From the NCBI GenBank assembly GCA_000091205.1, contig AP006497.2: a stretch of DNA of 64,000 nucleotides. The stretch is one strand, 5' to 3'. Both the position numbers and the translations under genes were made by a program. Position 1 is the first letter of the stretch. Each line of letters starts with the position of its first letter. The DNA comes from Cyanidioschyzon merolae. Its lineage: Eukaryota. A model generated the notes under the pieces. The model had not been told where the DNA came from. It did not search any database and saw only the letters and a program-made list of their open reading frames with translations. Below, one piece after another: positions 4,149 to 64,000 of the stretch.

Positions 4149-5355
4149 GAGACGCTGACATATTTAGGCTTACAGTGCCCGCGCTGGAAGCAGGAGCGCA
4201 GCGAGCTCCTTGAAGGACAGCAGCAGCTGGGCATCAGCGTGATAGTCGAAGGCCGGACACTCACTCTGAGTGTAGCACTGGCAACTGATGGTCCGTTAAC
4301 GGAGCCTCAGCGCTCATCAATGGCGAACAAACTCACATGCTACGTTCTAGGCAGAAGGTCCAGCGAATCGGATGCGCACACGGGCCCAGTGCGCTTTCTG
4401 CGCCTACCCACTGTGGTGGGTATCGAGCACAAACCCACGTTGCCAACCGACAACAATGCATTCCATGCATGATCACGAAGGAGAGAGGCGGCTCCCAGGA
4501 TATATCCTAACAACCAAGTTTCTCCAGCGTGTCGTGCAGCGAATACAAGCCTGCATCCGCAGACTGTCCGAGCACAAACTGACGACGAGACCCGATTCTA
4601 CGTCGGGTGAACCACACCTCGAGCCGACGCCCTTTGTGGTACGCCAACGCCGTTCTGTCTCCGTGCAGCGACAGCACCGGCGCTGTAGGCGCTATTGCTG
4701 TCGCTTTCGGCAGGTACTAGGCACACACGATAGGACGTATGAAATGACCAGTATATTCGAGAAGAAGTAGAGGTAATGTAAAATGGAGGTAGGGGGTTGA
4801 TGGATACCTCACCTCGCACTGAAAACCCCAAAAAGAAAAGAAAAATGCGCATAATCGGAGAACGCTGGCCTATGGAAACGTCTTGGCAATGAAAAAAATT
4901 CAGGGCGTCCCTTTCCCACGGTGTCCGCTATGGCGATTCGATGCGCCGCGATCGCCGCCGACGTCGCCCGAGGCGGGTGCCGCGTGCGCGGCGCCGCCTT
5001 CTTTCGCCGATGTCGCGACCTACTCCGCCGACACTTGTTTCTAAGGCGACCACCGCGACAGTGTCGACGGCTTGAAGCTTCGGTTTGTGTCTTGCCAGTG
5101 ACGTTTGGACTATAGTCGCGACACTCGTCTCTCCGTGTGACTCGTTCTAGGAAGATTACTCAAAGCACTAAGCACAGATCTTCAAGCGTCTCTAACAAAC
5201 GAGTGCGTTGGACTTTGGGTTGGACGGCAAGCTCGTGAGGCCCTCCGAGTGAAGTGGAACCCTGTCGAAACGAAAGCGCTGTGGGCTGTTTCTGAAAAAG
5301 CGGTCGCACTGGCGCTTCTCTGAACCGCTGCGTTTCCGTGGCGTGTATCGAGTTT

Positions 5356-9645: not shown

Positions 9646-10767
9646 TCTCTTCCCAGTATCATCAGCAACAGCCTTTGCGAGATTCTTCGGCGACTGCTCC
9701 CTTTTCCGGTCTCTTGTCTCTGGCGTGCCATAGCCGATCTCTCCTGTGATCGATGTACTATGTCAGCAGTCAACGGATGCCGATGGCAGCATCGAAGCCT
9801 CGATTTCGCTGCTTCTGGCTGTCGCCGACGCGCTTCATGAACAGACCGTAGATGCGATCTACGCCCCGCTTGGCATGTTCGCCTTCTTCATCATATACCG
9901 CCTCTGTACGCCGTATACAGCGGTGACGCTTCGCTACCGTCGGTTATTCGCGTATGTCGACTGCGCGTCTTCCGCGGGCCGTCCTACAACGCGTGAACGC
10001 TTGCCTCATCGCCCGGCACATGCCCCGCCATGGCACAGAACGCTTCTCTGGGTGCGGTCCTCGGTTTCAGCACGCGGTGCCGTGCACTACGATTACGTGC
10101 TCCACCCGGGCGATCCTCTCGCCATTGTCTCTGTCCTCTGCACGAGCAAGCGCGCGCTCTTCCAATGGATAGATGATTTATGGAACGCGATGTCGTCCAC
10201 GATGAAACTTGTGTCGGAAGGAAAACCAGGGCTGGATCAGCATTCGAGAGATTCGGATGCGTCAACGCTGCCTCTGTACGAATCGATGACGCACTCTGCA
10301 CTAGCCGCACTCGCGGCGATACAAGAAGGCCGGTTCGAAACCTCTTCTACGTGCAACCGGAAGCGTCGTGTGCCTCAGGGAGTACAAGCCATGAGGTATG
10401 CCATGCTCCTGGGGAATGCGGTTCCGTTAGTGGCCTCAGAGAGAGGATAATTTGGCTTTCCGTGAGATTGTTTATTTGATGTGAGTGTCTCAGTGAACTC
10501 TTGGCGTGGACTTGCGAAGAGGTCGATGAGGGTCTTCGATGGGTTTTTCCTATTCAATCCAGATGCGCAGAATGCTGAGCCCACGACTTGCCTACAAAAA
10601 CTGGTTGATCGAAAACTTGGTGAATGCTTATGTTGAGCATGCTGCGCGCAATAAATGGAGAAGCGCGGAGTCTCGTACTTACGCATTGGATAACGATATC
10701 GGTTCTTTTACGGAACCCTGCTGGAGGGCGTCGTGCTTCATCATGATTTCGATAAAGGATCGAATTC
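9646..10767 (-). repeat. Interspersed repeat family X, subfamily A, copy 1 (~1.12 kb, non-coding; minus orientation relative to subfamily B)
   Basis: It is about 99% identical to 20963-22085, and the overlapping ORFs differ by only 2 of 234 aa. It is related at roughly 65-75% nucleotide identity to B, with shared blocks ccgatatcgttatcca and ccgtaaaagaacc versus cctaaaaatacc, and homologous 3' termini (gaaaagggagcag versus gaaaggagcag). Confidence 0.75.
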
Positions 10768-13325: not shown

Positions 13326-14790
13326 AGTCCACCTTTTCGGACTAGAAATTTGTTCTCAGATTGTGAAGACTGACCAGCGACAGACCCAACTGTTACGTTT
13401 CGTACGGAAAACGTGGATGCGGAGGAGATTGGTGGCGCGCAATGTCGCGCGCTCTGCCCTAGGCGGCGTACTAAGGAGCGGCCGTGCGTCTGGCAGAACG
13501 CGTTTCTGTTGTTGTTGTTGTTGTTGCTGAGTAACACTTTCATTACACTGTAGGTATAAAGCTGCCTCTATCCTAGTCTCATGCCCTGGTCAGGCTGTGG
13601 TATGGTAAAGACGGCAGCGCAACGCGGATCGGCATAGGACGGGTACCTAATGGAGCTCGGACGCTTGCAATCGTCGTGTGTGCGAGACCGAAAGCGCGCT
13701 GCATGGGTCCCAAGTGCAAGCTGCTGACCGTGCTTTATTGAAAAGCGTTGTTGGGATTTCCCATTTCGTTCTTGTGTCCCTACGTGAACGGATTGTGCAT
13801 CAGACGTTGAGGGTCAGCGCATTGCAGACAATGCAAACCGACCGCTAGCACATTTGCATCAGTACAGATTTTTCGTGCTTGCAGCCAGGCAATTCGTTCG
13901 GTGCATCCACGAGAGGGCCGAAACACTCCCCCAAAGTCACGTTTCCTATCAACTCTTACAACAAAAGCAGCGCACAGCTGGCGCGAGATAAAGCCGTCTC
14001 TCAAGTTCGTCACTCCGGGGGCGCGCACACGCGTACCTCTTGCGCACCGATACGATAACAGCGATGCTAAGGCGAAAGCGTCCCATATACATTCGGGATC
14101 CGTAGTGAGCTCGACAACTCGGTGGTAACTGCGTGGATCAAGCCTTTCTTTCCTGACGGACTACTACCCTGACGCTGAGGCGTGGAAATTCCCGCGAAAG
14201 GCATCAGGCAAAGCACGCTGAGGATCGCAGTCTAGCGGCCTGCTCGAGTCGCGAGTCCGGGAGCTTCCAGCTCGATGTAACCGGGCGAGACGATATAGAG
14301 TGTGTCCGCACGAGCGCGAACGGGCGTCGCGACCTCAGCACCCAAACCTCATGACAACAAAAACCACAAGCAATTGCGGGTTCCGGCAAAACTGATCAAT
14401 GGTTCTTTTAGCCACGTTACGTCGTCGAGTCTGGCCAAATGACCCCGCGAATTATCTTCAGACTAGACAGGTCCTGGTTGTTTGGTCAAAGTGCGTGGCG
14501 CGAAGCTCCCCATAGCTGCTTGCAGTTGGTGCTTCTGGTGACGCCGTGCAGGGCGAACGCTTTCGCAACCAAGGCCAGTACCGACCAACACTTCACATTG
14601 TAAATCGGTACCAGTATACTGAGACCTGAGCGGTTTGGTCTGCCGGGGTATCGGTAATATACCTCACCCGCCGATGAGTGCCATTGCGTAACAACGCAGC
14701 AGCGTACACGGTCTTGGTTTGTGTACAAAAGCCTGTGGACTGTCCGCTGGCTGCGCCAAGAAGAACGCTTGTCTTTGCGCTACATCCGGG

Positions 14791-16068
14791 TCAGATGAAA
14801 AAGGAACAGTAAACAGTTCGTTCTGGTCTAGATGTTTGATTTTTTCGGATCTTATGAACGATGTACAGCATCGACACTCAATGACCAAAAGTAGCACTAT
14901 TGGATTCATAAGATGCCTACCGATGCTCGGTCGCCGTTTCGGGATGGCATCTTCGGCGTTTCGTAGCTGGAATCGTAATGGAACCTAAACCATGAGCATT
15001 TATAACGCCCGCGAGCAACGGCTCCTAAAAATACCCGATATCGTTATCCAGTGTATACGGACTGGCCTCCACGCTTCTCTGCTCTGTATGTGCAGCGTGC
15101 CCAAATCGTGCAGTCTTCGAGCCTCTTCGGTTTCTGTTCCGAGGCAACGACTGGGCGCATCAATGCTGGCCACTGGATTCTCGGGGAATCGCGGTCGACG
15201 TTCTCCCTTGACGGCTTGTTTGCATGGTCATCCCGAAAGTCCACGGAGATGCTCATGTCAAACGATCGATTCGGTTCGAAAGACATATCCTGCTCTCTTT
15301 GTGGCCACTGAAGACTCCCGTTTTTTGAACAGCACCGTGATACCTCACTCTCTCACGGAGGTATGCTCCAAGAGGCTCTCCTCTGTCTCCCATTCGCATG
15401 GACAGAGGTCTTCGACTCGGACTTGAGCTGTCGCAGTGAACGCTCCCAGTGCAGCGCTCATTGCCGGTCCGCACCGAGCGATCATAGACAGATCGACGAA
15501 TCTCGACTTCCTCTACATCCTTTACTTGCCGCACGCTACGTGTTTCATCGCGGGTAGCATCGCGCTCCACACATCTTTTTTATCGAATGAAGCAGTGTGC
15601 GTTTGCGTGTGCAACGCATAGAGCAAGTGCCGAGACGATCTCCCGGGAAAAGCACGTCATCGAAGTGCGTCGCACCGGCTGCTGAAGCCGTGCATGGCAT
15701 CGAAAGAGGCGTCCTGTGTCCATCAATAGGGTCTGTCTAGCGACCGAACAAAAGGTCACGGGTTATAGGACGGCGCTCGGTCGGGAAGATGCGTTGGACA
15801 TACCGAAGCACCTGACCACAGTCAAGCGTTATTGCCCGAAAAGGCGCACCAGGCCGTATACAAAGATGAAGAATAGAACGGGCGAGGCGTGGATCGCTGC
15901 TGCTGACTCTACGTTACCTTTTGTCGATAACAGCCAGACGCAGCGAGCTTCAGAAGAGAAAGCTGCCGTCAGCTTCATTCAACAGCTGAAAAAGGATAAC
16001 GATCGCAGAAGAGACCTGAATACGTAAAGCCGGAGAAAACAGACTGAGAAAGGAGCAGAACGGCAGAC
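14791..16068 (+). repeat. Interspersed repeat family X, subfamily B, copy 1 (~1.28 kb, non-coding)
   Basis: It is about 99% identical to 23986-25261. Its 5' 775 bp is homologous, in reverse complement, to subfamily C (shared blocks tcgaaccg[ga]atcgat[tc]g and gtccgtat[ag]aactg[cg]at[ca]acgata), and the rest to subfamily A. Confidence 0.75.
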
Positions 16069-16374: not shown

Positions 16375-16632
16375 AGCGCTGAGCACGGGTCCCTGCCGCT
16401 GTCGCTTGGTACCCGCGCACGGACACCAAGTGACGACTTGCAACCTCTACACGATCCATACTCAATTATGATCGCTGCCGGTGTCGCTTGGTACCCGCTC
16501 ACTGACGCCAAGTGGCGACTTGCAACCTCTATACGATCTATTCTCAATAATGACCGCTGCCGGTCTCGCTTGGTACTTGCGCACGGACACCAAGTGGCGA
16601 CTTGCAACCTCTACACGATCCATACTCAATCA
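16375..16632. repeat. Minisatellite, 82-83 bp unit x 3 (cgctgccggtgtcgcttggtacccgc…caagtggcgacttgcaacctctacacgatc…)
   Basis: The unit starts at about 16389, 16471 and 16553. It lies just 3' of the UCH37 gene. The overlapping ORFs 16183-16812 and 16481-17062 are repeat-derived. Confidence 0.8.
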
Positions 16633-16793
16633 TGTGTCCAATACAGCACCACAGCAAAGCGCTGTGCCCTTTACATCAGCGCCACCTGCGCTGATCTCGA
16701 CCGCATCATTTCAACAGACGCAGGAAGATTCTTGTCCCGGTTGTCAGCGGCATCAACGTTGGCGATGCGCTGCAATGGCGCAGCGGCGACGAA

Positions 16794-19648: not shown

Positions 19649-19740
<92 letters not shown>
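19649..19740. repeat. (CGCA)n tetranucleotide microsatellite, ~23 units
   Basis: A direct read of the sequence, about 95 bp after the ATAD1 stop codon. It generates the poly-RACV/THAR artefact ORFs on both strands. Confidence 0.95.
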
Positions 19741-20962: not shown

Positions 20963-22085
20963 TCTCTTCCCAGTATCATCAGCAACAGCCTTTGCGAGAT
21001 CCTTCGGCGACTGCTCCCTTTTCCGGTCTCTTGTCTCTGGCGTGCCATAGCCGATCTCTCCTGTGATCGATGTACTATGTCAGCAGTCAACGGATGCCGA
21101 TGGCAGCATCGAAGCCTCGATTTCGCTGCTTCTGGCTGTCGCCGACGCGCTTCATGAACAGACCGTAGATGCGATCTACGCCCCGCTTGGCATGTTCGCC
21201 TTCTTCATCATATACCGCCTCTGTACGCCGTATACAGCGGTGACGCTTCGCTACCGTCGGTTATTCGCGTATGTCGACTGCGCGTCTTCCGCGGGCCGTC
21301 CTACAACGCGTGAACGCTTGCCTCATCGCCCGGCACATGCCCCGCCATGGCACAGAACGCTTCTCTGGGTGCGGTCCTCGGTTTCAGCACGCGGTGCCGT
21401 GCACTACGATTACGTGCTCCACCCGGGCGATCCTCTCGCCATTGTCTCTGTCCTCTGCACGAGCAAGCGCGCGCTCTTCCAATGGATAGATGATTTATGG
21501 AACGCGATGTCGTCCACGATGAAACTTGTGTCGGAAGGAAAACCAGGGCTGGATCAGCATTCGAGAGATTCGGATGCGTCAACGCTGCCTCCGTACGAAT
21601 CGATGACGCACTCTGCACTAGCCGCACTCGCGGCGATACAAGAAGGCCGGTTCGAAACCTCTTCTCCGTGCAACCGGAAGCGTCGTGTGCCTCAGGGAGT
21701 ACAAGCCATGAGGTATGCCATGCTCCTGGGGAATGCGGTTCCGTTAGTGGCCTCAGAGAGAGGATAATTTGGCTTTCCGTGAGATTGTTTATTTGATGTG
21801 AGTGTCTCAGTGAACTCTTGGCGTGGACTTGCCAAGAGGTCGATGAGGGTCTTCGATGGGTTTTTCCTATTCAATCCAGATGCGCAGAATGCTGAGCCCA
21901 CGACTTGCCTACAAAAACTGGTTGATCGAAAACTTGGTGAATGCTTATGTTGAGCATGCTGCGCGCAATAAACGGAGAAGCGCGGAGTCTCGTACTTATG
22001 CATTGGATAACGATATCGGTTCTTTTACGGAACCCTGCTGGAGGGCGTCGTGCTTCATCATGATTTCGATAAAGGATCGAATTCC
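20963..22085 (-). repeat. Interspersed repeat family X, subfamily A, copy 2
   Basis: It is about 99% identical to 9646-10767. Confidence 0.75.
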
Positions 22086-23734: not shown

Positions 23735-23985
23735 GAAAGCAATATATCGTGAACCGGTCTATCGTGTGGATGCTTTCAAGTTTCAAGCGCCGCGGCTTGC
23801 CTCGTGCCGTCGTATCGGCTTTGAGGCGAGCGCTCGAGTTTTGAACCGTGTAATTGGTACTCACAGGAATTCATCGGTCATTTTCGTAACATTAGGAAGG
23901 AAACGCAACTTGCCGCGCTCGATGGGCAAGAGATAGGGAGCATGTGCCGAGAAAACGGGTACAGCAGTGCCATGCTAGAAGCGAA

Positions 23986-25261
23986 TCAGATGAAAAAGGA
24001 ACAGTAAACAGTTCGTTCTGGTCTAGATGTTTGATTTTTTCGGATCTTATGAACGATGTACAGCATCGACACTCAATGACCAAAAGTAGCACTATTGGAT
24101 TCATATGCTGTTTACCGATGCTCGGTCGCCGTTTCGGGATGGCATCTTCGGCGTTTCGTAGCTGGAATCGTAATGGAACCTAAACCATGAGCATTTATAA
24201 CGCCCGCGAGCAACGGCTCCTAAAAATACCCGATATCGTTATCCAGTGTATACGGACTGGCCTCCACGCTTCTCTGCTCTGGATGTGCAGCGTGCCCAAA
24301 TCGTGCATTCTTCGAGCCTCTTCGGTTTCTGTTCCGAGGCTACGACTGGGCGCATCAATGCTGGCCACTGGATTCTTGGGGAACTGCGGTCGACGTTCTC
24401 CCTTGACGACTTGTTTGCATGGTCATCCCGAAAGTCCACGGAGATGCTCATGTCAAACGATCGATTCGGTTCGAAAGACATATCCTGCTCTCTTTGTGGC
24501 CACCGAAGACTCCCGTTTTTTGGACAGCACCGTGATACCTCACTCTCTCACGGAGGTATGCTCCAAGAGGCTCTCCTCTGTCTCCCATTCGCATGGACAG
24601 AGGTCTTCGACTCGGACTTGAGCTGTCGCAGTGAACGCTCCCAGTGCAGCGCTCATTGCCGGTCCGCACTGAGCGATCACAGACAGATCGACGAATCTCG
24701 ACTTCCTCTACATCCTTTACTTGCCGTACGCTACGTGTTTCATCGCGGGTAGCATCGCGCTCCACAAATCTTTTTTCAAATGAAGCAGTGTGCGTTTGCG
24801 TGTGCAACGCATAGAGCAAGTGCCGAGACGATCTCCCGGAAAAAGCACGTCATCGAAGTGCGTCGCACCGGCTGCTGAAGCCGTGCATGGCATCGAAAGA
24901 GGCGTCCTGTGTCCATCAATAGGGTCTGTCTAGCGACCGAACAAAAGGTCACGGGTTATAGGACGGCGCTCGGTCGGGAAGATGCGTTGGACATACCGAA
25001 GCACCTGACCACAGTCAAGCGTTATTGCCCGAAAAGGCGCACCAGGCCGTATACAAAGATGAAGAATAGAACGGGCGAGGCGTGGATCGCTGCTGCTGAC
25101 TCTACGTTACCTTTTGTCGATAACAGCCAGACGCAGCGAGCTTCAGAAGAGAAAGCTGCCGTCAACTTCATTCAACAGCTGAAAAAGGCCAACGATCGCA
25201 GAAGAGACCTGAATACGTAAAGCCGGAGAAAACAGACTGAGAAAGGAGCAGAACGGCAGAC
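23986..25261 (+). repeat. Interspersed repeat family X, subfamily B, copy 2
   Basis: It is about 99% identical to 14791-16068. Confidence 0.75.
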
Positions 25262-33268: not shown

Positions 33269-33562
33269 GAAGCCGACGCCCTCTGTGTGTGCTACGGCAA
33301 CGCCGTACTGTCTCCGTGCAGCGACCGCACCGGCGCTATAGACGACATTGCGGTCGCTTTTGGCAGGCACTAGGCACACACGATAGGACGTATGAAACGA
33401 CCAGAATATCCGAGAAGAAGTATAGGTCATGTAACTTGGAGGTAGCGGGTTTGATGGATACTTCACCGCGCACTGAAAAAACACAAAGAAACAGAAAGAA
33501 AAGAAAAAAGCGCATAATCGGAGAACGCTGGTCTATGGAAACGTTTTGTCAATGAAGAAAAG
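33269..33562 (+). mobile_element. 5'-truncated copy (292 bp) of the LINE 3' end, flanked by a perfect 18-bp target-site duplication tcaaactgcatgaagcga (33251-33268 and 33563-33580)
   Basis: The element aligns to 4622-4888 and ends …caatgaagaaaag. An identical 18-mer lies immediately on both sides, which is the hallmark of target-primed reverse transcription. Confidence 0.8.
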
Positions 33563-38542: not shown

Positions 38543-38930
38543 GCACGCGCATGATGCGTGCGTGCTTGGCACCGAACGCAGTAGCCACGACGACTCCTAC
38601 AGAGCGCCTCCTCTGGGTCGTTGAGGGCGTCAGATTCCATGCCACACTTGAGACTGGCAGTGCCCATACACGCACTGGAGCTGAGCGTTGTCATAAATCG
38701 GGACCTGGGGCTGCGAAACAATCGCTCTCAATGGTATTGCTGGCGTGCAACGAATGGACAGCGGGCACCACAACGCAAGTGCCCGCGGAATGCGGTGCGC
38801 TGGATGATTTCCTTGCATCTGTATGCAAGGATGCGCGCTCTGCTTCTTGTGCTGGTGCTGCTGCTTTGGGGAATTTGTGCACGTGCGTCATCCACGCTGA
38901 TGGTTGCTTTTCGAATGGTGACTACTGAGG
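38543..38930 (+). repeat. Repeat E, copy 1 (388 bp); it is the inverted partner of 44305-44692
   Basis: The overlapping ORF translations are about 97% identical in inverted orientation (…TRMMRACLAPNAVATTTPTERLLWVVEGVRFHATLETGSAHTRTG…). Confidence 0.8.
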
Positions 38931-43733: not shown

Positions 43734-43904
43734 CGGTTGTTGCGTAGGCCCCAGAAATACAGCGCGCTCTCTACGTGCCTCTGGGCGGGTCTAAGCGAAA
43801 GGACACAATAGTAATTGACAACTCTGGCTGCAAGCGATGCGATGCAGAGGCCACCGGGCGGCGGCTGCGGAGGCGTCCGGTGCTCGATGGAGCGATTCGC
43901 GAGG

Positions 43905-43964
<60 letters not shown>

Positions 43965-43965
43965 C
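43905..43965. repeat. (CCTG)15 tetranucleotide microsatellite, ~280 bp upstream of the GST-like start
   Basis: A direct read of the sequence. Confidence 0.95.
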
Positions 43966-44304: not shown

Positions 44305-44692
44305 CCTCAGTAGTCACCATTCGAAAAGCAACCATCAGCGTGGATGACGCAAGTGCACATATTCCCCGAAGCAGCAGCACCAGCACAAGCAGCAGAGCGC
44401 GCATCCTTGCATACAGATGCAAGAGAATCATCCAGCGCACCGCATTCCGCGGGCACTTGCGTTGTGGTGCCCGCTGTCCATTCGTTGCACGCCAGCAATA
44501 CCATTGAGAGCGATTGTTTCGCAGCCCCAGGTCCCGATTTATGACAACGCTCAGCTCCAGTGCGTGTATGGGCACTGCCAGTCTCAAGTGTGGCATGGAA
44601 TCTGACGCCCTCAACGACCCAGAGGAGGCGCTCTGTAGGAGTCGTCGTCGCCACTGCGTTCGGTGCCAAGCACGCACGCATCATGCGCGTGC
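44305..44692 (-). repeat. Repeat E, copy 2 (inverted relative to 38543-38930)
   Basis: The reverse complement aligns end-to-end with E1. Its 5' end, in the E1 sense, lies 7 bp from the start of the LINE 3'-end copy at 44700. Confidence 0.8.
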
Positions 44693-44699
44693 GCGTACC

Positions 44700-45250
44700 T
44701 TCTAGGCACAAGGTCCAGCGAATCGGATGCGCACACGGGTCCAGTGCGCTCTCTGCGCCTACCCACTGTGGTGGGTGTCAAGCACAAACCCGCATTGCCA
44801 ACCGACAACGCATTCCATGCATGATCACGAAGGAGAGAGGCCGCTCCCAGGATTCATCCTAACAGCCAAGTTTCTCCAGCGTGTCGTGCAGCGAAGGCAA
44901 GCCTGCATCCGCAGACTGTCTGAGCACAAACTGACGACGAGACCCGATTCTACGTCGTGTAAACCACGCTTCGAGCCGACGCCCTCTGTGGTATAGAAAA
45001 GCTATTCTAGCTCTATGAACTATCTGCTCCAGCGGTTCAGGCGCAAAGGCGGATGATTAGGGTAGGTACTAGACACACCCGATAGGGCATATGAGACGAC
45101 CAGAATATCCGAGAAGAAGTATAGGTAATGTAACTTGGGAGTAGGAGGTTGATGGATACTTCACCTCGCACTGAAAAACCCAAAAAGAAAAGAAAAATGC
45201 GCATAATCGGAGAACGCTGGCCTATGGAAACGTTTCGTCAATGAAAAAAA
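44700..45250 (+). mobile_element. 5'-truncated copy (~550 bp) of the LINE 3' end, ending …caatgaaaaaaaa
   Basis: It aligns to 4345-4888 at about 90% identity, with a 3-nt indel and scattered substitutions. No clear target-site duplication is visible. Confidence 0.7.
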
Positions 45251-46287: not shown

Positions 46288-46864
46288 AGGGCATTGCACT
46301 CCGTTCGCCCTCCGGTGATCCTAAGTCGACTGCTTACCGGTTCCATTGAGCGACAGGGTACATCAGCGAACGATAAAAAATGCATCGTGCCCGTGAGTCG
46401 CGCGCTAAAGACGCTTGGAAACTGCGTCGTACATTGTCGCCCAATGGGCAGCTGCTTGGTTTCGACGCTTGACCGACAATTGGAACCGTACCGCGCTGCG
46501 GGCGTGCATGTGGGTACCTGTTTGTGCGGGCCTTGCGTTCGTCTGGAGACAGGCATGCCGAACATGAAACCAGCCTGTTAGCAGGCTACCGTGTGGAGTC
46601 GCTATCGGACTCGCTGCGATTCCCGGACACAACGCGGCCCGTGTTCTTTTTCGCTGCGAATGCGAGGAATAACACAACCGCTTTGAGGCATCGCAAAACC
46701 AGGCTAGGAGAGTCAAAAGCTACTGACTACCGTCCAGGACGCAGTAAACACTCTCTAGTACTCTTTCTGGTAGAACTAGGGCAGATCGCTGCCTAGTTCA
46801 TTAGCCGCCATTAAGAGGCGCTCGGTATGTTCCCCGGGGAGGCGTGCGGGGTAACCCGATGACG

Positions 46865-47639
46865 AAAGCGAATTTTTCCATGATGAAACAAGTACCGGAA
46901 GGAATGCGCAGTTTGCATATACTGTCGAGACATACCGATCGATCTACGCTCCCCTTGTGCAGAGCGATGACCCAAGCTCCTCTGCAGGATATCGCTGGGT
47001 CCACAGCACGCCGTGCTCAAGATGCTTTTCTTTGCAAGCACTGGAGACAGGAGTCTCTGGAGGCACGTCCCGTGAGCGGTTTCGTTCGGCTGTGGACTGC
47101 CGTTTCTTCCACAGCGACAAAGGGATGAGGATTTGTGTCTCGAACCGGATCGATTGCTTGCTGACGTTCCAGGTCCAGGGAGTATGCGGCGCGCGCTCCT
47201 GAACACGTCCTCAAGCCACGTCGTCGAGTTTTGGTCTCTCGTCTATCCAGCGGCGTGCACGACCGCGCCCTCGACTTGCCCTGAACTCGAAAGATCCACA
47301 GCATGAAACATGTGTGATTTGCGCACAGTACACGTCATGACATGGGAAGCGTGGCGGCGTGTCCGTATGAACTGCATCACGATAGCGGTTGGTTAGGATT
47401 CCTTGCTCCAGCGTGTCGAGAATCAGCGTGCCTGCTGTAGCATACCGAGAATCCGGCGGCAAAGAGACGATGGAGCCAGTCCGAAAAGGCATCGAAGCAC
47501 CCTAAATTTACGTATGAACCCGAAAGCCCATCTTGCAGCACTGAGCGTGTCGAGTCTATATACCTACAACATTGGACGGGAGCAAAACAATCGAGTCGCA
47601 GAAACAGTGAGGAGTAGAGCGCTCCACCGTCTTCTGACA
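46865..47639 (-). repeat. Interspersed repeat family X, subfamily C, copy 1 (775 bp; corresponds to the 5' ~775 bp of subfamily B, minus orientation)
   Basis: It is about 98% identical to 54193-54966. The reverse complement is about 70-75% identical to B 14791-15540 (translations ICVSNRIDCLLT versus ICLSNRIDRLT, plus nucleotide blocks). Confidence 0.75.
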
Positions 47640-49624: not shown

Positions 49625-49835
49625 GACAGCCTACGGCGTCTTCGATGCCCCTTGCAGACCAAGAATGCGTGACCGCCCGCTGGTATAGGGCGCTGTAGCA
49701 ACTACTTGGAGCGTCTTCGATGCCCCTTGCAGACCAAGAATGCGTGACCGCCCGCTGGTATAGGGCGCTGTAGCAACTGCTTGGAGCGTCTTCGATGCCC
49801 CTTGCAGACCAAGAATGCGTGACCACATAACGACG
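49625..49835. repeat. Minisatellite, 75-bp unit x ~2.8 (…cgtcttcgatgccccttgcagaccaagaatgcgtgaccgcccgctggtatagggcgctgtagcaact…)
   Basis: The period is 75 bp (cgtc at 49637, 49712 and 49787). It produces a 25-aa repeat artefact ORF on the minus strand. Confidence 0.85.
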
Positions 49836-52787: not shown

Positions 52788-54192
52788 TACCTGGGCAATG
52801 CAGATAGATCGTTTGCAGACGATGTATACGGTATGCATGAAGTAACCCGACTTTAGATGCACTCCAGACGAGTGCTGGTTGTATTGGGTCTGCGTGCGAA
52901 TGCAGTGCGGGTTACGAAGGTAGAATCCTTTATGTTTTGTCGTGAAGATTTTCGCCGGCTCGTCTCGCGATGCGTAAAGTTTATGTCAAGAGAAGGGGAC
53001 GAGCCTCATCGAAATGAGGCGCGAACTACTTCTACTTCTACTGATGCTGCTGCTGCTGGTGGTGGCGGTGGCGGCGGTGGCGGTGCTAGGTGCATTGCAT
53101 TCCGGGCCAGATATCGCTATTTAGAACCCGAGTTTCCGTCCTGGAAACTATGCGACAAGATCTCTGAAGACCATGATGAGTGCTCTGTGCATTGACGCAA
53201 GCCAGAGTACGTTCCACGGATGTCAAGGAGGATTGTTCGACCTCAAAACAAACCGTGCTCTGCGCTTTGAACGGAGCACGCTGCAGTGGGTTGCACGGGT
53301 ACATGAAATCAATGTTGGACCTGAAGCAAAATGTTCTTTCGTGCCTGTAATCCAATTCACCCGGTACGAGCGGAATAAGGCGTCTGGGTCTCAGCCGTCG
53401 TAGAAAGGCAGACAGCAAGCTCGATAACCTCGTCGCAGTGCAGACTATGTATGCGCTTACTTCACAAAATATTTAGCGTCACAGACAAGTCATGCTTTTG
53501 TGCCAAAATCGTAGGAAAAAGTTCGATTGCGTTTCCTAAAGAACCAATTCGAGTATCACGAAACAGGTTTATCCAACGCATCCTCACAATCGTGGCAGAA
53601 TGAAGTGAAACGATTTCAACCAGCCTATTCTGGCGTTCAAATGAGTGGTTGAGTATATCCGGCTGTTACCAAAACTGGTCTTTGCGCGCTCGTTCGGTAA
53701 TGTCTTTCGTATACCTTCGGCAAGCTTCTGCGCTGGGTGTGCAGGTCTCCTGTGTCATTCGAGCTTCGGTTTCAGTAGTGGATGGATATTGATGGCAACG
53801 GTAGTGGTACGATGCCGCAATTTCGAGTTGCTGTCGAGGCATTTCATGCACAGAAGGTAGTTGCGATCAACGTTTTGCTCGCCATGATCATCTTCATTGC
53901 AGACAGCTTCGGTGGGCGCTTTGTACCGCTGACGCATGCCTGTGATAAGGTGCCCCCATATGTCCATCGTGCCTCCGTTCCCGATAGCCGCCCTGGGTCG
54001 CGTCAAGGCCAGCATCATCGCTCAGGAACCGTCCTCGAAGCGTACAGAAGGTGTCAGTGGATACCCGCTCCCGTTTCCGCGCCCGTTGCCGTGCCCTACA
54101 ACCATGTGCTTCTTCTGGGGGATCCACTCCTCGAGTACGCTCTCCACTGCACACGAAAGCGCATGATGTGCTTTGCAGTTGTGGATTTGCAG

Positions 54193-54966
54193 AAAGCGAA
54201 TTTTTCCATGATGAAACAAGTACCGGAAGGAATGCGCAGTTTGCATATACTGTCGAGACATACCGATCGATCTACGCTCCGCTTGTGCAGAGTGATGACC
54301 CAAGCTCCTCTGCAGGATATCGCTGGGTCCACAGCACGCCGTGCTCAAGATGCTTTTCGTTGCAAGCACTGGAGACAGGAGTCTCTGGAGGCACGTCCCG
54401 TGAGCGGTTTCGTTCGGCTGTGGACTGCCGTTTCTTCCACAGCGACAAAGGGATGAGGTTTTGTGTCTCGAACCGGATCGATTGCTTGCTGACGTTCCAG
54501 GTCCAGGGAGTATGCGGCGCGCGCTCCTGAACACGTCCTCAAGCCACGTCGTCGAGTTTTGGTCTCTCGTCTATCCAGCGGCGTGCACGACCGCGCCCTC
54601 GACTTGCCCTGAACTCGAAAGATCCACAGCATGAAACATGTGTGATTTGCGCACAGTACACGTCATGACATGGGAAGCGTGGCGGCGTGTCCGTATGAAC
54701 TGCATCACGATAGCGGTTGGTTAGGATTCCTTGCTCCAGCGTGTCGAGAATCAGCGTGCCTGCTGTCGCATACCGAGAATCCGGCGGCAAAGAGACGATG
54801 GAGCCAGTCCGAAAAGGCATCGAAGCACCCTAAATTTACGTATGAACCCGAAAGCCCATCTTGCAGCACTGAGCGTGTCGAGTCTATATACCTACAACAT
54901 TGGACGGGAGCAAAACAATCGAAACGCAGAAACAGTGAGGAGTAGAGCGCTCCACCGTCTTCTGAC
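54193..54966 (-). repeat. Interspersed repeat family X, subfamily C, copy 2
   Basis: It is about 98% identical to 46865-47639. Confidence 0.75.
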
Positions 54967-57406: not shown

Positions 57407-57672
57407 ACGGGTGCGGTGGTGGTATCCACGGCTTTGTACTCAGTCGCATGGTTGTGTCGATTCTGTTTAAGCAGCTTTGGCAAAAGCCAAAACGAGCGTG
57501 TTCATCGTTCAACCACGATTTCTTAGCCCGCAGCGACTGAAAGCAACTGGGCGCGCTTTAGGTTTCCGCGGCAGCGACGGGCGAGTCGCTTCACGACGCT
57601 TCGTTCAGTTGCAAGTCGAGCATCCTGTGGTCTGTGCACCTGGGATAGACTAACGCCGTGGAGGATGCGGAA

Positions 57673-58715
57673 CCACGCTGCAGCTGGTAAAAAGAGGTAC
57701 CTCCAAAGACGCTGATACTCTCCGCTAATCGAGCTACAAGACATGCTCTGCAAAGAAGAGCTAGGAAGGGCTCTTGCAGTATGCTGCAGCTGGTAAAACG
57801 AGGTACCTCCAAAGACGCTGATACTCTCCACTAATCGAGCTACCTAGACATGCTCTGCAAAGAAGAGCTAGGAAGGGCTCTTGCAGTATGCTGCAGCTGG
57901 TAAAACGAGGAACCTCCAAAGACGCTGATACTCTCCGCCAATCGAGCTACCAAGACATGCTCTGCAAAGAAGAGCTAGGAAGGGCTCTTGCAGTATGCTG
58001 CAGCTGGTAAAACGAGATACCTCCAAAGACGCTGATACTCTCCACTAATCGAGCTACCTAGACATGCTCTGCAAAGAAGAGCTAGGAAGGGCTCTTGCAG
58101 TATGCTGCAGCTGGTAAAACGAGGAACCTCCAAAGACGCTGATACTCTCCGCCAATCGAGCTACCAAGACATGCTCTGCAAAGAAGAGCTAGGAAGGGCT
58201 CTTGCAGTATGCTGCAGATGGTAAAACGAGATACCTCCAAAGACGCTGATACTCTCCACTAATCGAGCTACCTAGACATGCTCTGCAAAGAAGAGCTAGG
58301 AAGGGCTCTTGCAGTATGCTGCAGATGGTAAAACGAGATACCTCCAAAGACGCTGATACTCTCCACTAATCGAGCTACCTAGACATGCTCTGCAAAGAAG
58401 AGCTAGGAAGGGCTCTTGCAGTATGCTGCAGATGGTAAAACGAGATACCTCCAAAGACGCTGATACTCTCCACTAATCGAGCTACCTAGACATGCTCTGC
58501 AAAGAAGAGCTAGGAAGGGCTCTTGCAGTATGCTGCAGATGGTAAAACGAGATACCTCCAAAGACGCTGATACTCTCCACTAATCGAGCTACCTAGACAT
58601 GCTCTGCAAAGAAGAGCTAGGAAGGGCTCTTGCAGTATGCTGCAGCTGGTAAAACGAGGTACCTCCAAAGACGCTGATACTCTCCGCTAATCGAGCTACC
58701 TAGACATGCTCTGTA
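57673..58715. repeat. Tandem satellite, 107-bp unit x ~9.7, with at least three unit subtypes arranged non-randomly (higher-order structure)
   Basis: The period is 107 bp (atgctgcagctgg at 57781, 57888, 57995 …). Variant positions co-vary: gaggtacc, gaggaacc or gagatacc; ccactaat or ccgccaat; acctag or accaag; cagctgg or cagatgg. It fills most of the 1.4-kb spacer between DRS1 and the next gene. Confidence 0.9.
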
Positions 58716-58806
58716 GCGATGATCCAGCTGGCGCCCCTACACCTAACTGTATCCCCAGCTGTGGAGCGGAGCACCGCTCGAGCGACACCAACCTGGAACT
58801 CGCCGC

Positions 58807-61800
58807 ATGCACCTGCCAGCGCATCCCGTGAACAACTTTTATCGGATTCTAGCGCCTGGAGTGCGAACCGACACGTCCTGCTCCAGCCGAACACTTTCGA
58901 GGAGAGGTTTTGCGTTGATGGACGCTGATTTTCCCGAATGGGAAGCTCCAGCGGTCAGCCTCTTCGATTGTTTGCTCCAGGGGTGTCACGAGAACCCGAA
59001 CGGTCGTTGTGTACGCTGCGAGAACAGCGTCGGGTGTCCTGTCGCCTCCGTTTCTTCGGACGGCTGGCTGGCCTACGCACAAGTCAGAGCGTACGTGGAT
59101 CGCCTTATCGCATACCTGCAGAGCGAGCCATTGAAACTGACTCCAGGGAAACGCGTTGCCGTTTATAGCGTGTTTCGGTGGGAGGTCTCGATCGTTCTTA
59201 GCGCGGCGAGCTTTCTGCAACTGCCCGTCGTGCTCATCGACGCACACGAAGACGTCTCCTTTGCTCGTGCGCTACTCAATAACCAATGTGTTTCACTTCT
59301 GTTTCTTGGTCAGGAACAGAACTGCGAGGAACTCCAGAGCTATGCAGGTAGGTGTCTGCTTTTGGGAGCGGCGGCTCTAGACCTGCCGTCGCAGCCGCCG
59401 ACACTATTCTCGGTACTGCAGGTCGACACTGCCCCGGAGGTCGTGACATCTGGGCAACCTCGTCGAAAAGACTCCGTCGCGCTGATCATGCCAACCGCGG
59501 GCATGACAGGTCCACGACGAGTCATCTGCGTAACCGAAGAACAGCTAGCCCAAGCCGCACATGCGCTAGCCCCGTTGCTTCAGTATACATCGTCGGATGT
59601 AGTCTGTTTTCTGACATACTCCATATTTCATCCATTTTTTATTGTACATATCCTGCTGTTATTCCGAGCTGGCGGTGCCTTTGGAGCCGAACTCCAGACA
59701 CTCGACAATATACGAAAAATGCGTACAACCGTGCTTGTTGGCCCAGGTGCTATACTATCCACATTCTATGAGCTTCTCCGCAAAGAGGGTGAAAAGCTTC
59801 GCGGACTTGCGCGTCGCATCTTTGCGCTGCTCGTGGAGCAACCTCCATTGAATCAATGGGACCCAAAAGCGGCGCTGAAGAGCACGCGAACAGGCATCGC
59901 GCGCTCGGTGATGCGCAGCATCCGCGACCTCTTCGTGCCCCAGTATCGCCTGACGGTCAGCGGCATCTCGCGACTCGCCGAGGACACACGACTCTGTCTG
60001 GAGCGGCTCCTTCTGGAACCTGTACTCGATGTATACGGGCCATCGGAGTGGGCTGGCGTGTGTCTTGCTCGAACGCGCAAACGAGAGCATGACGAATGGT
60101 TCTGTATCCTGAGCAGTCCCTTCAACCGTCTGGGCCGTCTCTCGACACTCATGCGTCAGGGCGAACATACGGCGTACGGCGAGCTGCACCTCCATATCAA
60201 CGGAAAATGGACAGCGACGGGGGATCTCTTTCGTTTCATCATGAACCGGGGTCCAAGTGACCCTGAAGCACCGCAATGGCGAGCGCTCGCATTTGTGGAT
60301 AGGATCTCGAAGATCGTGCTTTGTGCAGAGCACGGTGCGAACGAGTTGGATACCTCTTTGGTGGAGCCAATTGAGCTTTCTCCACATGAGAAACAACCGC
60401 CGTTTCTCTCACTGAGTCTCATGGAACGGGCATCACAGCGCAGTGCCTTTGTTCGACAGTGCTGGATCTCGTTTGAGGCACCACAGCGTCTCATGGTTCT
60501 TCTGGTTCCCGTCCGCGACATGGTATGGAAATGGCTACGAATGCGACAATCCGCGAATGGCACTGCACTCGTGCCGTCCAGAGACGCGCTTTCGGTCGAG
60601 CCGATGCGAGATGTCTGCAACGACGCCCTGTTCCAGGAGGCTGTTGTGTGCGACCTGCGGCGCGTGCTCGTCAACTGTCGTGCCATCAGAGACGAATGGT
60701 TTGATGCGCTCTCCTGGGAAATCTATTTTGAGCCACAACTCGATGCGGGCTGCTTCGATTTGGGCTTCACTCCGCGCAACCGCCTCTTAACACCGTCGTT
60801 CGAATTGAGAACGAAATCACTTCGTGCCTATTATGGGAAAGAGCTTGGTATTCCGGTGCCGAGGGCCTCGCTGGAGCGCGGTGCGTTACTCGCAGAGCAG
60901 CTTGATGAGGAGGGCAGGCTCTCGGAATCCTCGAATAGCGACGAATTCGAATCAGACATAGGCGACGAGCCGGAGACTGCAACCGCTTCGAGTCTACAGC
61001 GATGGCTTTTGACGCTCTGGTCGGCTTTGCGCGCTGACCTCGTCGATCCTGTTTTGAATGCTGATGAAGAATGCATCGAGCATCGCTCGTTTTGGGGACG
61101 CATATTTCACCGTCAGCTAGTCACGTCCGATTCCGCCGAAAGGGCAACTACGCGAAGCACGCGAGAGACCTCAGCTGGTGAAGCTGCATCCACCAGCATA
61201 CCTCGCACAGACCCCGATCCAGATGGTGCTTCAAAAGGCCCAGCACCCGCTCAGGAGATAGGCTGGATCGCACGTTTCTGGCGATCAGCGGGCGATCCTG
61301 GTCTCAGCGAGCGTCCCCCGGTGCATTTGCCACGCTTCGCGAGCCTCGATGCTGACCTGCCCGATGGTGCTTGTTTGCCGCTGTTGCATTCGACGCGAAA
61401 TACTGGTCGACGACAAAGACAAAAGGCGCACGATGGACGGCTACGTAGCCGTGATGGTGGTGCAGCTTCAGGGCACTCGCGATGGCGCCTCGGTCGATTG
61501 TGGAACACGTTGGTCCATGAATCGCCAGATCACGACTGTGTGGATGCTGGTGCTGCTACACAAGTTGATCGTGGAGCGGGCGACGGGGCGGATATGGTGG
61601 GAGGCCTCACGGCATCGGGCGCCTCAGAAGCTGCAGCGCAGATGCCTCGATGGCGGCGCTGGTTGCACGTCCCGAGAGTCACAGCGTCAGGCGTGTGCGG
61701 TGCTCCCCAAATGAACGAGCACATGAGAACGATTCGGAAAGGGCGTAAGCGGAACCGCTATGATCACCACTCTGCCGAGTCGCTTTCCATATCTGATTCT

Positions 61801-62085
61801 GAGATAGCACGGCGATTTCAGCGCCCGTGGCGGAAGTTTCCTGTACAGTTCCATGCAGCGGCTGCCGGTCGCATTCGGCAATGGTGGACGGGCCGCGACT
61901 CCAGTGACCGGCACGTGAACGCGAGCGTCACTAGCATTCGAGAGCACAGTGATGATCACTGCATCGCAAGTGCTTCAAATGCCACTGAGCAAGGAGTTTG
62001 TACAGAGACGAGTTCGAATGTGAGCGCGGTAGATTCGCTTTCAGAGAACTACCAGGGATCCATGCGTATTCAAGGTCTTCCATGA
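58807..62085 (+). CDS. Acyl-CoA synthetase-like (AMP-binding/adenylate-forming) protein with a variant P-loop and a ~400-aa low-complexity C-terminal extension, 1092 aa
   Basis: Collinear adenylate-forming motifs: IMPTAGMTGPRRV (in place of [ST]SGTTGxPKG), DVYGPSEWAG (YGxTE), WTATGDLFRF (TGD) and DRISKIVLCAEHGANELDTSLVEPIE (DRxKD…GE.V.P..IE). The ORF continues about 1.2 kb past the last motif without a stop, which is unlikely by chance at this GC content. Confidence 0.65.
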   Translation: MHLPAHPVNNFYRILAPGVRTDTSCSSRTLSRRGFALMDADFPEWEAPAVSLFDCLLQGCHENPNGRCVRCENSVGCPVASVSSDGWLAYAQVRAYVDRLIAYLQSEPLKLTPGKRVAVYSVFRWEVSIVLSAASFLQLPVVLIDAHEDVSFARALLNNQCVSLLFLGQEQNCEELQSYAGRCLLLGAAALDLPSQPPTLFSVLQVDTAPEVVTSGQPRRKDSVALIMPTAGMTGPRRVICVTEEQLAQAAHALAPLLQYTSSDVVCFLTYSIFHPFFIVHILLLFRAGGAFGAELQTLDNIRKMRTTVLVGPGAILSTFYELLRKEGEKLRGLARRIFALLVEQPPLNQWDPKAALKSTRTGIARSVMRSIRDLFVPQYRLTVSGISRLAEDTRLCLERLLLEPVLDVYGPSEWAGVCLARTRKREHDEWFCILSSPFNRLGRLSTLMRQGEHTAYGELHLHINGKWTATGDLFRFIMNRGPSDPEAPQWRALAFVDRISKIVLCAEHGANELDTSLVEPIELSPHEKQPPFLSLSLMERASQRSAFVRQCWISFEAPQRLMVLLVPVRDMVWKWLRMRQSANGTALVPSRDALSVEPMRDVCNDALFQEAVVCDLRRVLVNCRAIRDEWFDALSWEIYFEPQLDAGCFDLGFTPRNRLLTPSFELRTKSLRAYYGKELGIPVPRASLERGALLAEQLDEEGRLSESSNSDEFESDIGDEPETATASSLQRWLLTLWSALRADLVDPVLNADEECIEHRSFWGRIFHRQLVTSDSAERATTRSTRETSAGEAASTSIPRTDPDPDGASKGPAPAQEIGWIARFWRSAGDPGLSERPPVHLPRFASLDADLPDGACLPLLHSTRNTGRRQRQKAHDGRLRSRDGGAASGHSRWRLGRLWNTLVHESPDHDCVDAGAATQVDRGAGDGADMVGGLTASGASEAAAQMPRWRRWLHVPRVTASGVCGAPQMNEHMRTIRKGRKRNRYDHHSAESLSISDSEIARRFQRPWRKFPVQFHAAAAGRIRQWWTGRDSSDRHVNASVTSIREHSDDHCIASASNATEQGVCTETSSNVSAVDSLSENYQGSMRIQGLP

Positions 62086-64000
62086 AGAATCGCGTTGACA
62101 GAGAGGCATGGAGGCAGACAGTGGTGCATTTCGCTATGGCAGCCGATCCTAGTGCATCCAGATTCTGGGCACGGTTTGCAAAGGGACCTACTTGGGCGAC
62201 AAGTCGGGTAGATGCCATTATTCATCTTTCGCATGGTTGCGAGTATTGCATTCCAGACGGTCTTTATGATCGTATGAAACGAAATGTTAATGTGACGGTG
62301 GCAAAATCTCATGGCGTCCTACAGTGTACGCAGAGCAGTGCTTTTGGATACACATGTGTGAGCGCGCTCCCTTTTTTGTTGTTGTTTTTCGAGTAGGTAT
62401 TCAACAAAATGGGTGTATCCATAATATTCGAGAGACGTGGCCGGAACACGTGAAGCTACCCCTTGAAGCTTGTGGAAAATGGATTCACTTGCTCTAGAAA
62501 GTTTTGTCTAGGCTTAATAGGTGGGTGAACCATGTCTCTTTCAGGTCTGGTTGCGAGCGTCATGGACCTAAACAGACCATGTCAAACATAATTCACGCAA
62601 TTGGCCCCTGGTCAGTACGTATCACTCCCGATATTCTCTACGACCTATGACAAAACGCCACAGGATGTGAGGTTCACACAAGGATCATACTTATAATCAT
62701 GCATAGACACAGATGGAGGGAACAAAGCATGCCTTGATGTGCGATTCGTGCATATTGAACAATACACGATCGATTCGGGAGTGAAATGCGAACGCCTGAT
62801 ACAAGAGCGAAAAGCGTTCGTCTCAGTTGATGAGAATGTCCTCACGCGAAATGATAGATATGGATATGGGGATCGAATGGATGACAAAGCGCTGTTCCTA
62901 AGGAAGAGACAAGCCAGCATAATGACATCTTCGGTAATAGCGACGACTTAGCCGTGTGAAGGCCTACAAGACGCGTCAAACGGAAGATATCGCTCAACAC
63001 CAGAACCGTCGTTGAAGCAGTTCTTGCCTGCATTGTCCCGTATTCGGCGGTCATGCTCCTGCTCAGCGCGACTTCCCGTTGTTCCAAAGCGGTCGAGGTG
63101 TACGCAGCTGACGTTGGTTTTGCGATACTGCACTTGCGAACATCTCCTCCCTGGTTCCGTTCAATCGACGGCGTATGCTGTCTTGTCGAACACCATCTCT
63201 ACGACGGCGTATACGTAGACGAGTCATTCGCATCTGGAACATCAAAGTTCTTCGAGGAGTCGTACGCGACCTTCACCAGTCCTGAACGGGCCTGTTGCTC
63301 CTCTGCACATGCGTAGGAGCGGACGGAGCGGCGCGCTTCGGTACGTGAGCGTGCTCGCGACAGCAAAGGCCTAAACCGTACATGAGGAATTGTGTTCACT
63401 GATGCATCGAAGAGAAGGGCACCATTGCCAACGTCTACTCAGGTCGTCTGATTTCCGTTGACTCAATGGGCTTGGAGTGGAGCGCCCACGCCTACGCAAA
63501 CCTGAAAACTCACGGAGAAGGCGAAGCGGTAGAAGGGGAAGAATGTCACCTCACAAGCAACAGTCAGTTGCTTTCGAAAACAGCACAAGGAGAGATCGGA
63601 AGGAAAACTGGTTGTTGCGGGGAGGTCACTCTGGACGCAGTGTCAACGCCTCGCTATGACGACACGTCAACGGGGAGGATCCTCCAAAAAACGAGTTTCG
63701 GGACGCCATGAAGTCTCTCGAAGCTTTCCTCATCTTGATGCGCATCGTCAAACACTTGTGCTTAGGCGAACCGGACGCACGATTTCGGTCTCCCGTACAC
63801 TTCTTGGGATTTGCTCTATCCATCCGGCATGCGGCAACACAACTGATACCCAGGCCAGAAGATGCAACACCGCCTGATTGTAGGATAAGAACGTTGAAAA
63901 CGCGCTCTCGAGGATAGCTTGCGGCGTCGCCGTGCCACCTCGGCGATGAGCGCGTCTACGACGCGTTTGCGGAAACTTGTGAAACTAACCTCCGCATCCA

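Follow-up and report, generated by a model that had tools for sequence, protein, structure and literature searches.

A 107-bp intergenic tandem array upstream of CMO037C in Cyanidioschyzon merolae, probably a neutral minisatellite of a single locus

On chromosome 15 of Cyanidioschyzon merolae 10D, a tandem array of 107-bp units sits between a DDX27/Drs1-like helicase gene and CMO037C. Three readings were initially offered: a minisatellite of this locus, a member of a dispersed satellite family, and a set of regulatory sites in a promoter. In the window analysed here, the whole 64,000-nucleotide stretch of DNA, TRF detected the array at 57677-58713 with a period of 107, 9.7 copies, 97% matches, no indels scored, and a score of 1920. 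It spans 1,037 bp with 49.2% G+C and is by far the strongest among the six tandem repeats that the program reported in the window. The original prediction was borne out in presence, place, period, and copy number, and the coordinates it gave (57673-58715) lie within four bases of those of TRF. Sub-sequences of the unit were also counted across the window: a 31-nt sub-sequence (with up to 3 mismatches) occurs 10 times and a 48-nt sub-sequence 9 times, every occurrence lying inside the array, with 0 expected from 100 dinucleotide-preserving shuffles. The array is real and far beyond chance.

The spacer that contains the array extends over 1,511 bp (57407-58917), from the helicase stop at 57406 to the annotated start of CMO037C at 58918. 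The array covers 69% of it and is bordered by unique sequence, 270 bp to its left and 204 bp to its right, so that the description of the array as filling nearly the whole spacer was overstated. The labels given earlier to the two genes, DRS1 and acyl-CoA-synthetase-like, broadly hold. Pfam identifies DEAD and Helicase_C domains in the upstream gene, which is annotated as a “probable ATP dependent RNA helicase”; JGI gives its near-identical relatives the name DDX27, the family to which yeast Drs1 belongs. For the downstream gene, Pfam reports an AMP-binding domain. Three upstream proteins (a Yip1-domain protein, a PMS2-like protein, and the helicase) are identical to BAM81426-81428 of chromosome 15, and with CMO037C, whose 1,055 residues all match BAM81429.1, these four identities establish both organism and locus. 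The mechanical open reading frame of CMO037C begins at an in-frame upstream ATG at 58807 (1,092 aa), whereas 58918 is the start used in the deposited protein (1,055 aa) and in all wild relatives, and the alignment of the sister-species orthologue begins there as well; 58807-58917 is the stretch between these two starts. Derivation of the array from either flank was considered and rejected. The similarity of the left flank to the unit is at chance level (23/107), and that of the right flank, with 15/32 matches and a common CAGCTGG, is suggestive of a decayed unit end and is not significant.

The register of the units was set to begin at CTGCAG (57678), which resolves the array into nine full units and a partial tenth that ends after 75 nt (Table 1). 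The right junction of this last unit reads CATGCTCTG/TAGCGATG, the slash marking the array edge. Eight columns vary among the units (7, 16, 20, 21, 47, 49, 61, and 62), none of them beyond nucleotide 62; the final 45 nt show no variation across the nine full units of 10D, an invariance that could reflect either constraint or recent homogenisation. Units 3 and 5 (u3 and u5) are exactly identical, as are u6, u7, u8, and u9. The variants A21, C49, and A62 travel jointly in u3 and u5, and unit 10 is close to u2 and to the wild-type consensus. The interspersed variants show polarity, with distinct and most divergent units at the edges (u1 and u10) and identical ones inside (u6-u9). At the unit junction there are the palindromes GCTGCAGC and CAGCTG, and interlocking inverted repeats of 5-6 bp lie in the invariant part of the unit.

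This anatomy agrees in part with what had been proposed for the subtypes. Co-variation of variant sites within units was confirmed, as A21/C49/A62 occur together in u3 and u5 among the eight variable columns. The scheme of alternating subtypes A, B, C, and B, followed by four C' units and an A-like unit, was roughly right but missed unit 5, and its assignment of the four identical units to a C' type did not stand. A single base (C7A) separates these units from u4, and six changes separate them from the C type (u3/u5); for this reason they are considered B-derived. The term “higher-order subtype organisation” was likewise too strong for what amounts to one 214-bp duplication and a four-fold expansion of the newest variant. 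The pair u3u4/u5u6 is the only such block pair in the array, and u6-u9 are monomeric copies. The resemblance to higher-order repeats of the alpha satellite type lies in the alternation of unit subtypes over part of the array (u3u4/u5u6); in contrast to alpha satellite, there is one two-unit duplication and no periodic multi-unit structure, and the array occupies one euchromatic intergenic site and is 1 kb long, where alpha satellite extends over tens of kb to Mb.

Table 1. Coordinates of the 107-bp array, its units and neighbours, and of the other long-unit arrays. Positions refer to the window unless a contig is given; L002 is a C. merolae extension and L013 a sister-species contig.
Feature	Coordinates	Strand	Evidence or remark
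Tandem array, 107 bp x 9.7	57677..58713		TRF, unit register, G+C
Unit 1, edge unit, 106 bp: A16, 1-bp deletion at column 61, A62	57678..57783		Variant matrix
Unit 2: wild-type consensus + G47A	57784..57890		Variant matrix
Units 3+4, two-unit block copy 1: u3 = A21/C49/A62, u4 = u2 + G20A	57891..58104		Variant matrix
Units 5+6, two-unit block copy 2: u6 adds C7A (CAGCTG -> CAGATG)	58105..58318		Variant matrix
Units 7-9: same as u6	58319..58639		Variant matrix, 0 differences among u6-u9
Unit 10, partial edge unit: first 75 nt of unit	58640..58714		Unit register, variant matrix
Unique left part of spacer, 270 bp, no similarity to unit	57407..57676		23/107 in-register matches, about chance
Unique right part of spacer, 204 bp, directly upstream of CMO037C start codon	58714..58917		
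Upstream gene: DEAD-box RNA helicase, 703 aa	55295..57406	+	Identical to BAM81428.1
Downstream gene: CMO037C, 1,055 aa, AMP-binding domain protein	58918..62085	+	Identical to BAM81429.1
Tandem array 82x3	16393-16634		
Tandem array 75x2.5	49636-49824		
Tandem array 127x2, C. merolae extension	L002 7170-7419		
Tandem array 81x5, sister species	L013 256-655		
Tandem array 84x3.7, sister species	L013 8620-8933		
Tandem array 79x2.1, sister species	L013 21710-21875		

The distribution of the array beyond 10D was addressed with an invariant 23-mer of the unit, scanned against a metagenome collection, viral contigs, and 185,579 prokaryotic genomes. It matches four metagenome contigs, and all four align to the window flanks of the array at 99.1-99.6% identity; no matches were found in the viral contigs or in the 185,579 prokaryotic genomes. 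In sample Ga0078972, two contigs end in the array, one of 13 kb that approaches it from the left and one of 81 kb that approaches it from the right, a pair that is as expected of a single locus in a well-covered genome. When the unit was compared by sensitive blastn with the sister-species loci and with the remainder of the window, 11-13-nt chance matches only were returned. These searches support an array that appears locus-specific in the data covered, namely closely related wild strains, the window, and the sister-species loci. Among the options first put forward, the locus-specific minisatellite is therefore favoured by the four 23-mer contigs, all from this locus, and the dispersed satellite family is unsupported, with one site of 1,037 bp and no second copy in the window or the sister-species loci.

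About 20 hot-spring metagenome contigs cover the locus, and the proteins they encode are approximately 99% identical. All wild contigs share the left junction, GGAACCACG/CTGCAG, and the right junction, CATGCTCTG(T/C)A/GCGATG, in which the first flank base is either T or C. The deleted first unit seen as u1 is also present in five of them (L003, L004, L011, L021, and L026). The same variant sites recur in the wild contigs in new combinations, some of which could also have arisen by chimeric short-read assembly, and singletons are seen in the 3' part of the unit. The wild contigs carry 0.7, 1.7, 2.7, 3.7, or 4.4 copies, a spread for which assembly collapse is the likelier cause, because the contigs were assembled from short reads and several of them belong to a single sample series. 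The metagenome contigs were rejected as an unreliable guide to copy-number polymorphism: 0.7, 1.7, 2.7, and 3.7 copies all occur among contigs of one series, and many contigs stop exactly at the array edge. The 0.7-copy form cannot be ancestral, since it is without the 31 nt that complete a unit. The ends of contigs L001, L002, L006-L010, L012, and L028 coincide with array edges, as do those of L017/L018 in the sister species. Metagenome and Logan short-read assemblies either break at the array edges or collapse the arrays to 0.7-4.4 copies, and such arrays are systematic contig breakpoints for this alga.

The explanation that probably accounts best for these observations is a neutral, locus-specific intergenic minisatellite, built and remodelled by slippage and/or unequal exchange together with conversion. 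Its units are arranged head to tail, it occupies one locus in the data searched, and its interspersed variants show polarity. In these respects it resembles the minisatellite/VNTR loci of human and yeast, which likewise consist of head-to-tail units in a kilobase-scale array at a single locus, with divergent edges, with interspersed variants that record the history of duplication, and with variant sites reshuffled between strains. Minisatellite units conventionally measure 10-100 bp. The 107-bp unit differs from these loci in lying at or just above the usual upper size and in being without a G-rich or chi-like core. In its behaviour, which is textbook-like, the array is an ordinary minisatellite.

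The variants are most simply explained by the following course of events. There would have been an older array, of which u1 and u10 are the decayed edges, and a stepwise lineage that led from the consensus to u2 (G47A), then to u4 (G20A), and then to u6 (C7A). A single duplication of the two-unit block u3u4 would have produced u5u6, after which the u6 variant would have expanded, very recently, to four identical copies. Replication slippage and/or unequal sister-chromatid exchange, with gene conversion between units, are the putative agents of this remodelling, and it may be speculated that slippage is helped by the short inverted repeats and by the palindromes GCTGCAGC and CAGCTG where two units meet. 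Divergent edges, identical inner units, and reshuffled wild variants form the classic signature of unequal exchange and conversion. Unequal crossing-over or conversion, as initially suggested, is a reasonable view of the array, with which the new combinations of variants in wild contigs are consistent, but chimeric assembly could give some of these combinations. We infer this mutational mechanism and also neutrality, while the anatomy, the restriction to one locus in the data searched, the missing coding and RNA signals, and the divergence in the sister species are direct observations. The array is most likely without sequence-specific function.

At 204-1,241 bp before the start codon of CMO037C, and with both neighbouring genes on the + strand, the array sits where an upstream promoter region of that gene would be expected. 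The units could offer putative binding sites in the CMO037C promoter, with copy number tuning expression, and the 45 invariant nucleotides at the 3' end of every full 10D unit, as well as the palindromes and short inverted repeats at the unit junction, are compatible with such sites. Vinces et al. 2009 reportedly described unstable tandem repeats in yeast promoters whose copy number tunes expression. The array is like those repeats in being a tandem repeat upstream of a gene in a compact genome, where copy number could alter promoter architecture, but the yeast repeats are mostly short, AT-rich, and nucleosome-excluding, whereas the C. merolae unit is 107 bp long with 49% G+C. The candidate motifs, moreover, vary between units: the E-box at the unit junction is CAGCTG or CAGATG, a second site is GGTACC, GATACC, or GGAACC, and CCAAT is found in two units only, those of the u3/u5 variant. 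The hexamers CAGCTG and CTGCAG occur commonly throughout the window (0.59 per kb), the orthologous promoter of the sister species has no similar sequence, and the other arrays in both genomes share no motif and occupy varied positions relative to genes. Together, these observations make a cis-regulatory repeat unlikely. A role as RNA, in which the array would be transcribed as a snoRNA-like tandem cluster or as part of the helicase 3' UTR or the CMO037C 5' UTR, is very doubtful. Tandem snoRNA arrays exist in other protists, but a search of Rfam at E<=10 gave three noise hits only, at 12-16 bits and E 3.7-8.7, well under the gathering scores (no more than 15.7 bits where the array begins on its left; 16 and 12.3 bits for those in the flanks). 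Inspection of the units revealed no C/D or H/ACA box pattern, ARAGORN found no tRNA in the whole window, and two-unit segments folded no better than shuffles on either strand (z of +0.23 and -0.77), so that neither an RNA family match nor a stable structure marks the array as a tandem non-coding RNA cluster. Coding signal was also absent, with 10-15 stops in each of the six frames across the array and a longest open stretch of 62 codons. A protein search with a 52-aa open reading frame running through the array yielded no candidates and is uninformative, because the locus itself was missed by that search.

The remaining readings concern the chromosome and the wider genome. The array could be imagined as the centromere of chromosome 15, a replication origin, or a repeat island silenced by H3K27me3, a mark that covers about half of the annotated repeats in C. 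merolae (PMC5405695). Its 49.2% G+C is near the approximately 48.4% given for C. merolae centromeres, which are described as 2-3 kb long with no other pattern (bioRxiv 10.1101/096016, citing Kanesaki 2015). Against this, 47-51% G+C is ordinary for spacers of the window (e.g., 46.8% at 62000-62999 and 50.6% at 53000-53999), the whole spacer is only 1.5 kb long, centromeres are reported to lack repeats, and no counterpart of the sequence is present in the sister species. A chromatin or chromosome element of this kind is extremely improbable. Hardly more credible is the proposal that the array belongs to a dispersed satellite family or forms the internal repeat of a mobile element. The 23-mer finds this locus only, in samples with algal contigs of up to 81 kb, no further copy is present in the 63 kb of surrounding sequence, and no terminal inverted or direct repeats were found flanking the array. 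In addition, the published repeat inventory of C. merolae consists of the telomere repeat, 34 transposons, and 253 WSV486-like interspersed elements (PMC1955436). What speaks for the proposal is the non-integer number of 9.7 copies, which is unlike simple in-place duplication without later deletion and could hint at the insertion of a pre-formed array.

Comparison with the sister species places the array in a broader setting. The sister-species protein, which is the nearest other orthologue of CMO037C, shares 49% identity with it, and the gene order Yip1 - PMS2 - helicase - ACS is kept. No similarity to the 107-mer was found in the syntenic sister-species spacer of 1,364 bp. This helicase-ACS spacer holds an unrelated array of 84-bp units (3.7 copies) at a different position; alignment of the 107-bp and 84-bp units gives a score of 16, against a shuffle mean of 15.2. 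The 84-bp array (L013 8620-8933; also L015 8203-8432) starts 18 nt before the helicase stop codon, so that the end of the DDX27-like helicase gene lies within its first unit. The same spacer measures 1,364, 1,280, or 1,196 bp in different metagenome contigs, corresponding to 3.7, 2.7, or approximately 1.7 copies. The presence of arrays in syntenic spacers was rejected as a sign of conserved function: the units are unrelated, and each genome has a high density of such arrays. Of the roughly six spacers that the two have in common, three are occupied in C. merolae and two in the relative, and at least one coincidence would be expected approximately 80% of the time.

Across the window with its extension and 23 kb of the sister species, all seven long-unit arrays have a unit of 75-127 bp, and none has a unit of 5-74 bp or of more than 127 bp. 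Their density is approximately one array per 8-20 kb. These arrays are intergenic, with sequence-unrelated units that are 96-99% identical to one another within an array, and they hold no constant position relative to genes. A motif shared among six of the array units was sought and rejected, as CTTGCA, present in 4/6, was also recovered in 40/500 shuffles. The 107-bp array is like the other Cyanidioschyzon-like intergenic arrays in its unit range (75-127 bp), intergenic position, and unique sequence, but it is the longest by far (9.7 versus 2-5 copies) and the only one with clear unit subtypes. That it is either a copy-number-tunable element upstream of CMO037C or the largest member of a size-clustered class of intergenic arrays in two species is, for the two taken jointly, quite unlikely.

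Repeats of other kinds were also observed in the window. Perfect tetranucleotide microsatellites are present at 19649-19740, (CGCA)23, and at 43904-43965, (GCCT)15.5. A direct duplicate of 775 bp, approximately 99% identical, lies upstream of the Yip1 gene (46864-47638) and upstream of the helicase gene (54192-54966), where it overlaps a 224-aa open reading frame (53782-54456) that is also called in wild contigs and has no Pfam hit; the duplicate may be a putative fragment of a WSV486-like interspersed element. Dispersed repeats with 72-100% identity pair 9646-9945 with 20963-21262 and 14779-15862 with 23974-25055, and a further repeat occurs in three copies (4453-4798, 44805-45150, and 33288-33451). 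An inverted pair, 38543-38930 and 44305-44692, has 388-nt arms that are 98% complementary and 5.4 kb apart.

In the papers on C. merolae that were searched, no mention was found of this array, of CMO035C-038C, or of minisatellites other than telomeres, and the published descriptions of the genome that were consulted contain no mention of intergenic arrays or minisatellites; generic TRF tracks for the genome are available in Ensembl (PMC11050394). The sequence of the array has been public in the finished 10D genome since 2004/2007 and matters little in itself. Its practical consequence is that it breaks or collapses in every short-read assembly of the locus examined, so copy number is not to be read from them. 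Should the number of copies prove truly variable, wild Cyanidioschyzon populations could conveniently be typed by strain with this array, and if it were a tunable element of CMO037C, its expansion and contraction would lead to heritable expression variation in a haploid, repeat-poor alga. The clustering of units at 75-127 bp, if true, would suggest that sequences are duplicated by a specific, size-selective mechanism in these “simplest” eukaryotic genomes. It may be worthwhile to count, across the whole genome, the many unrelated arrays of 75-127-bp units in an alga whose genome is advertised as nearly free of repeats.
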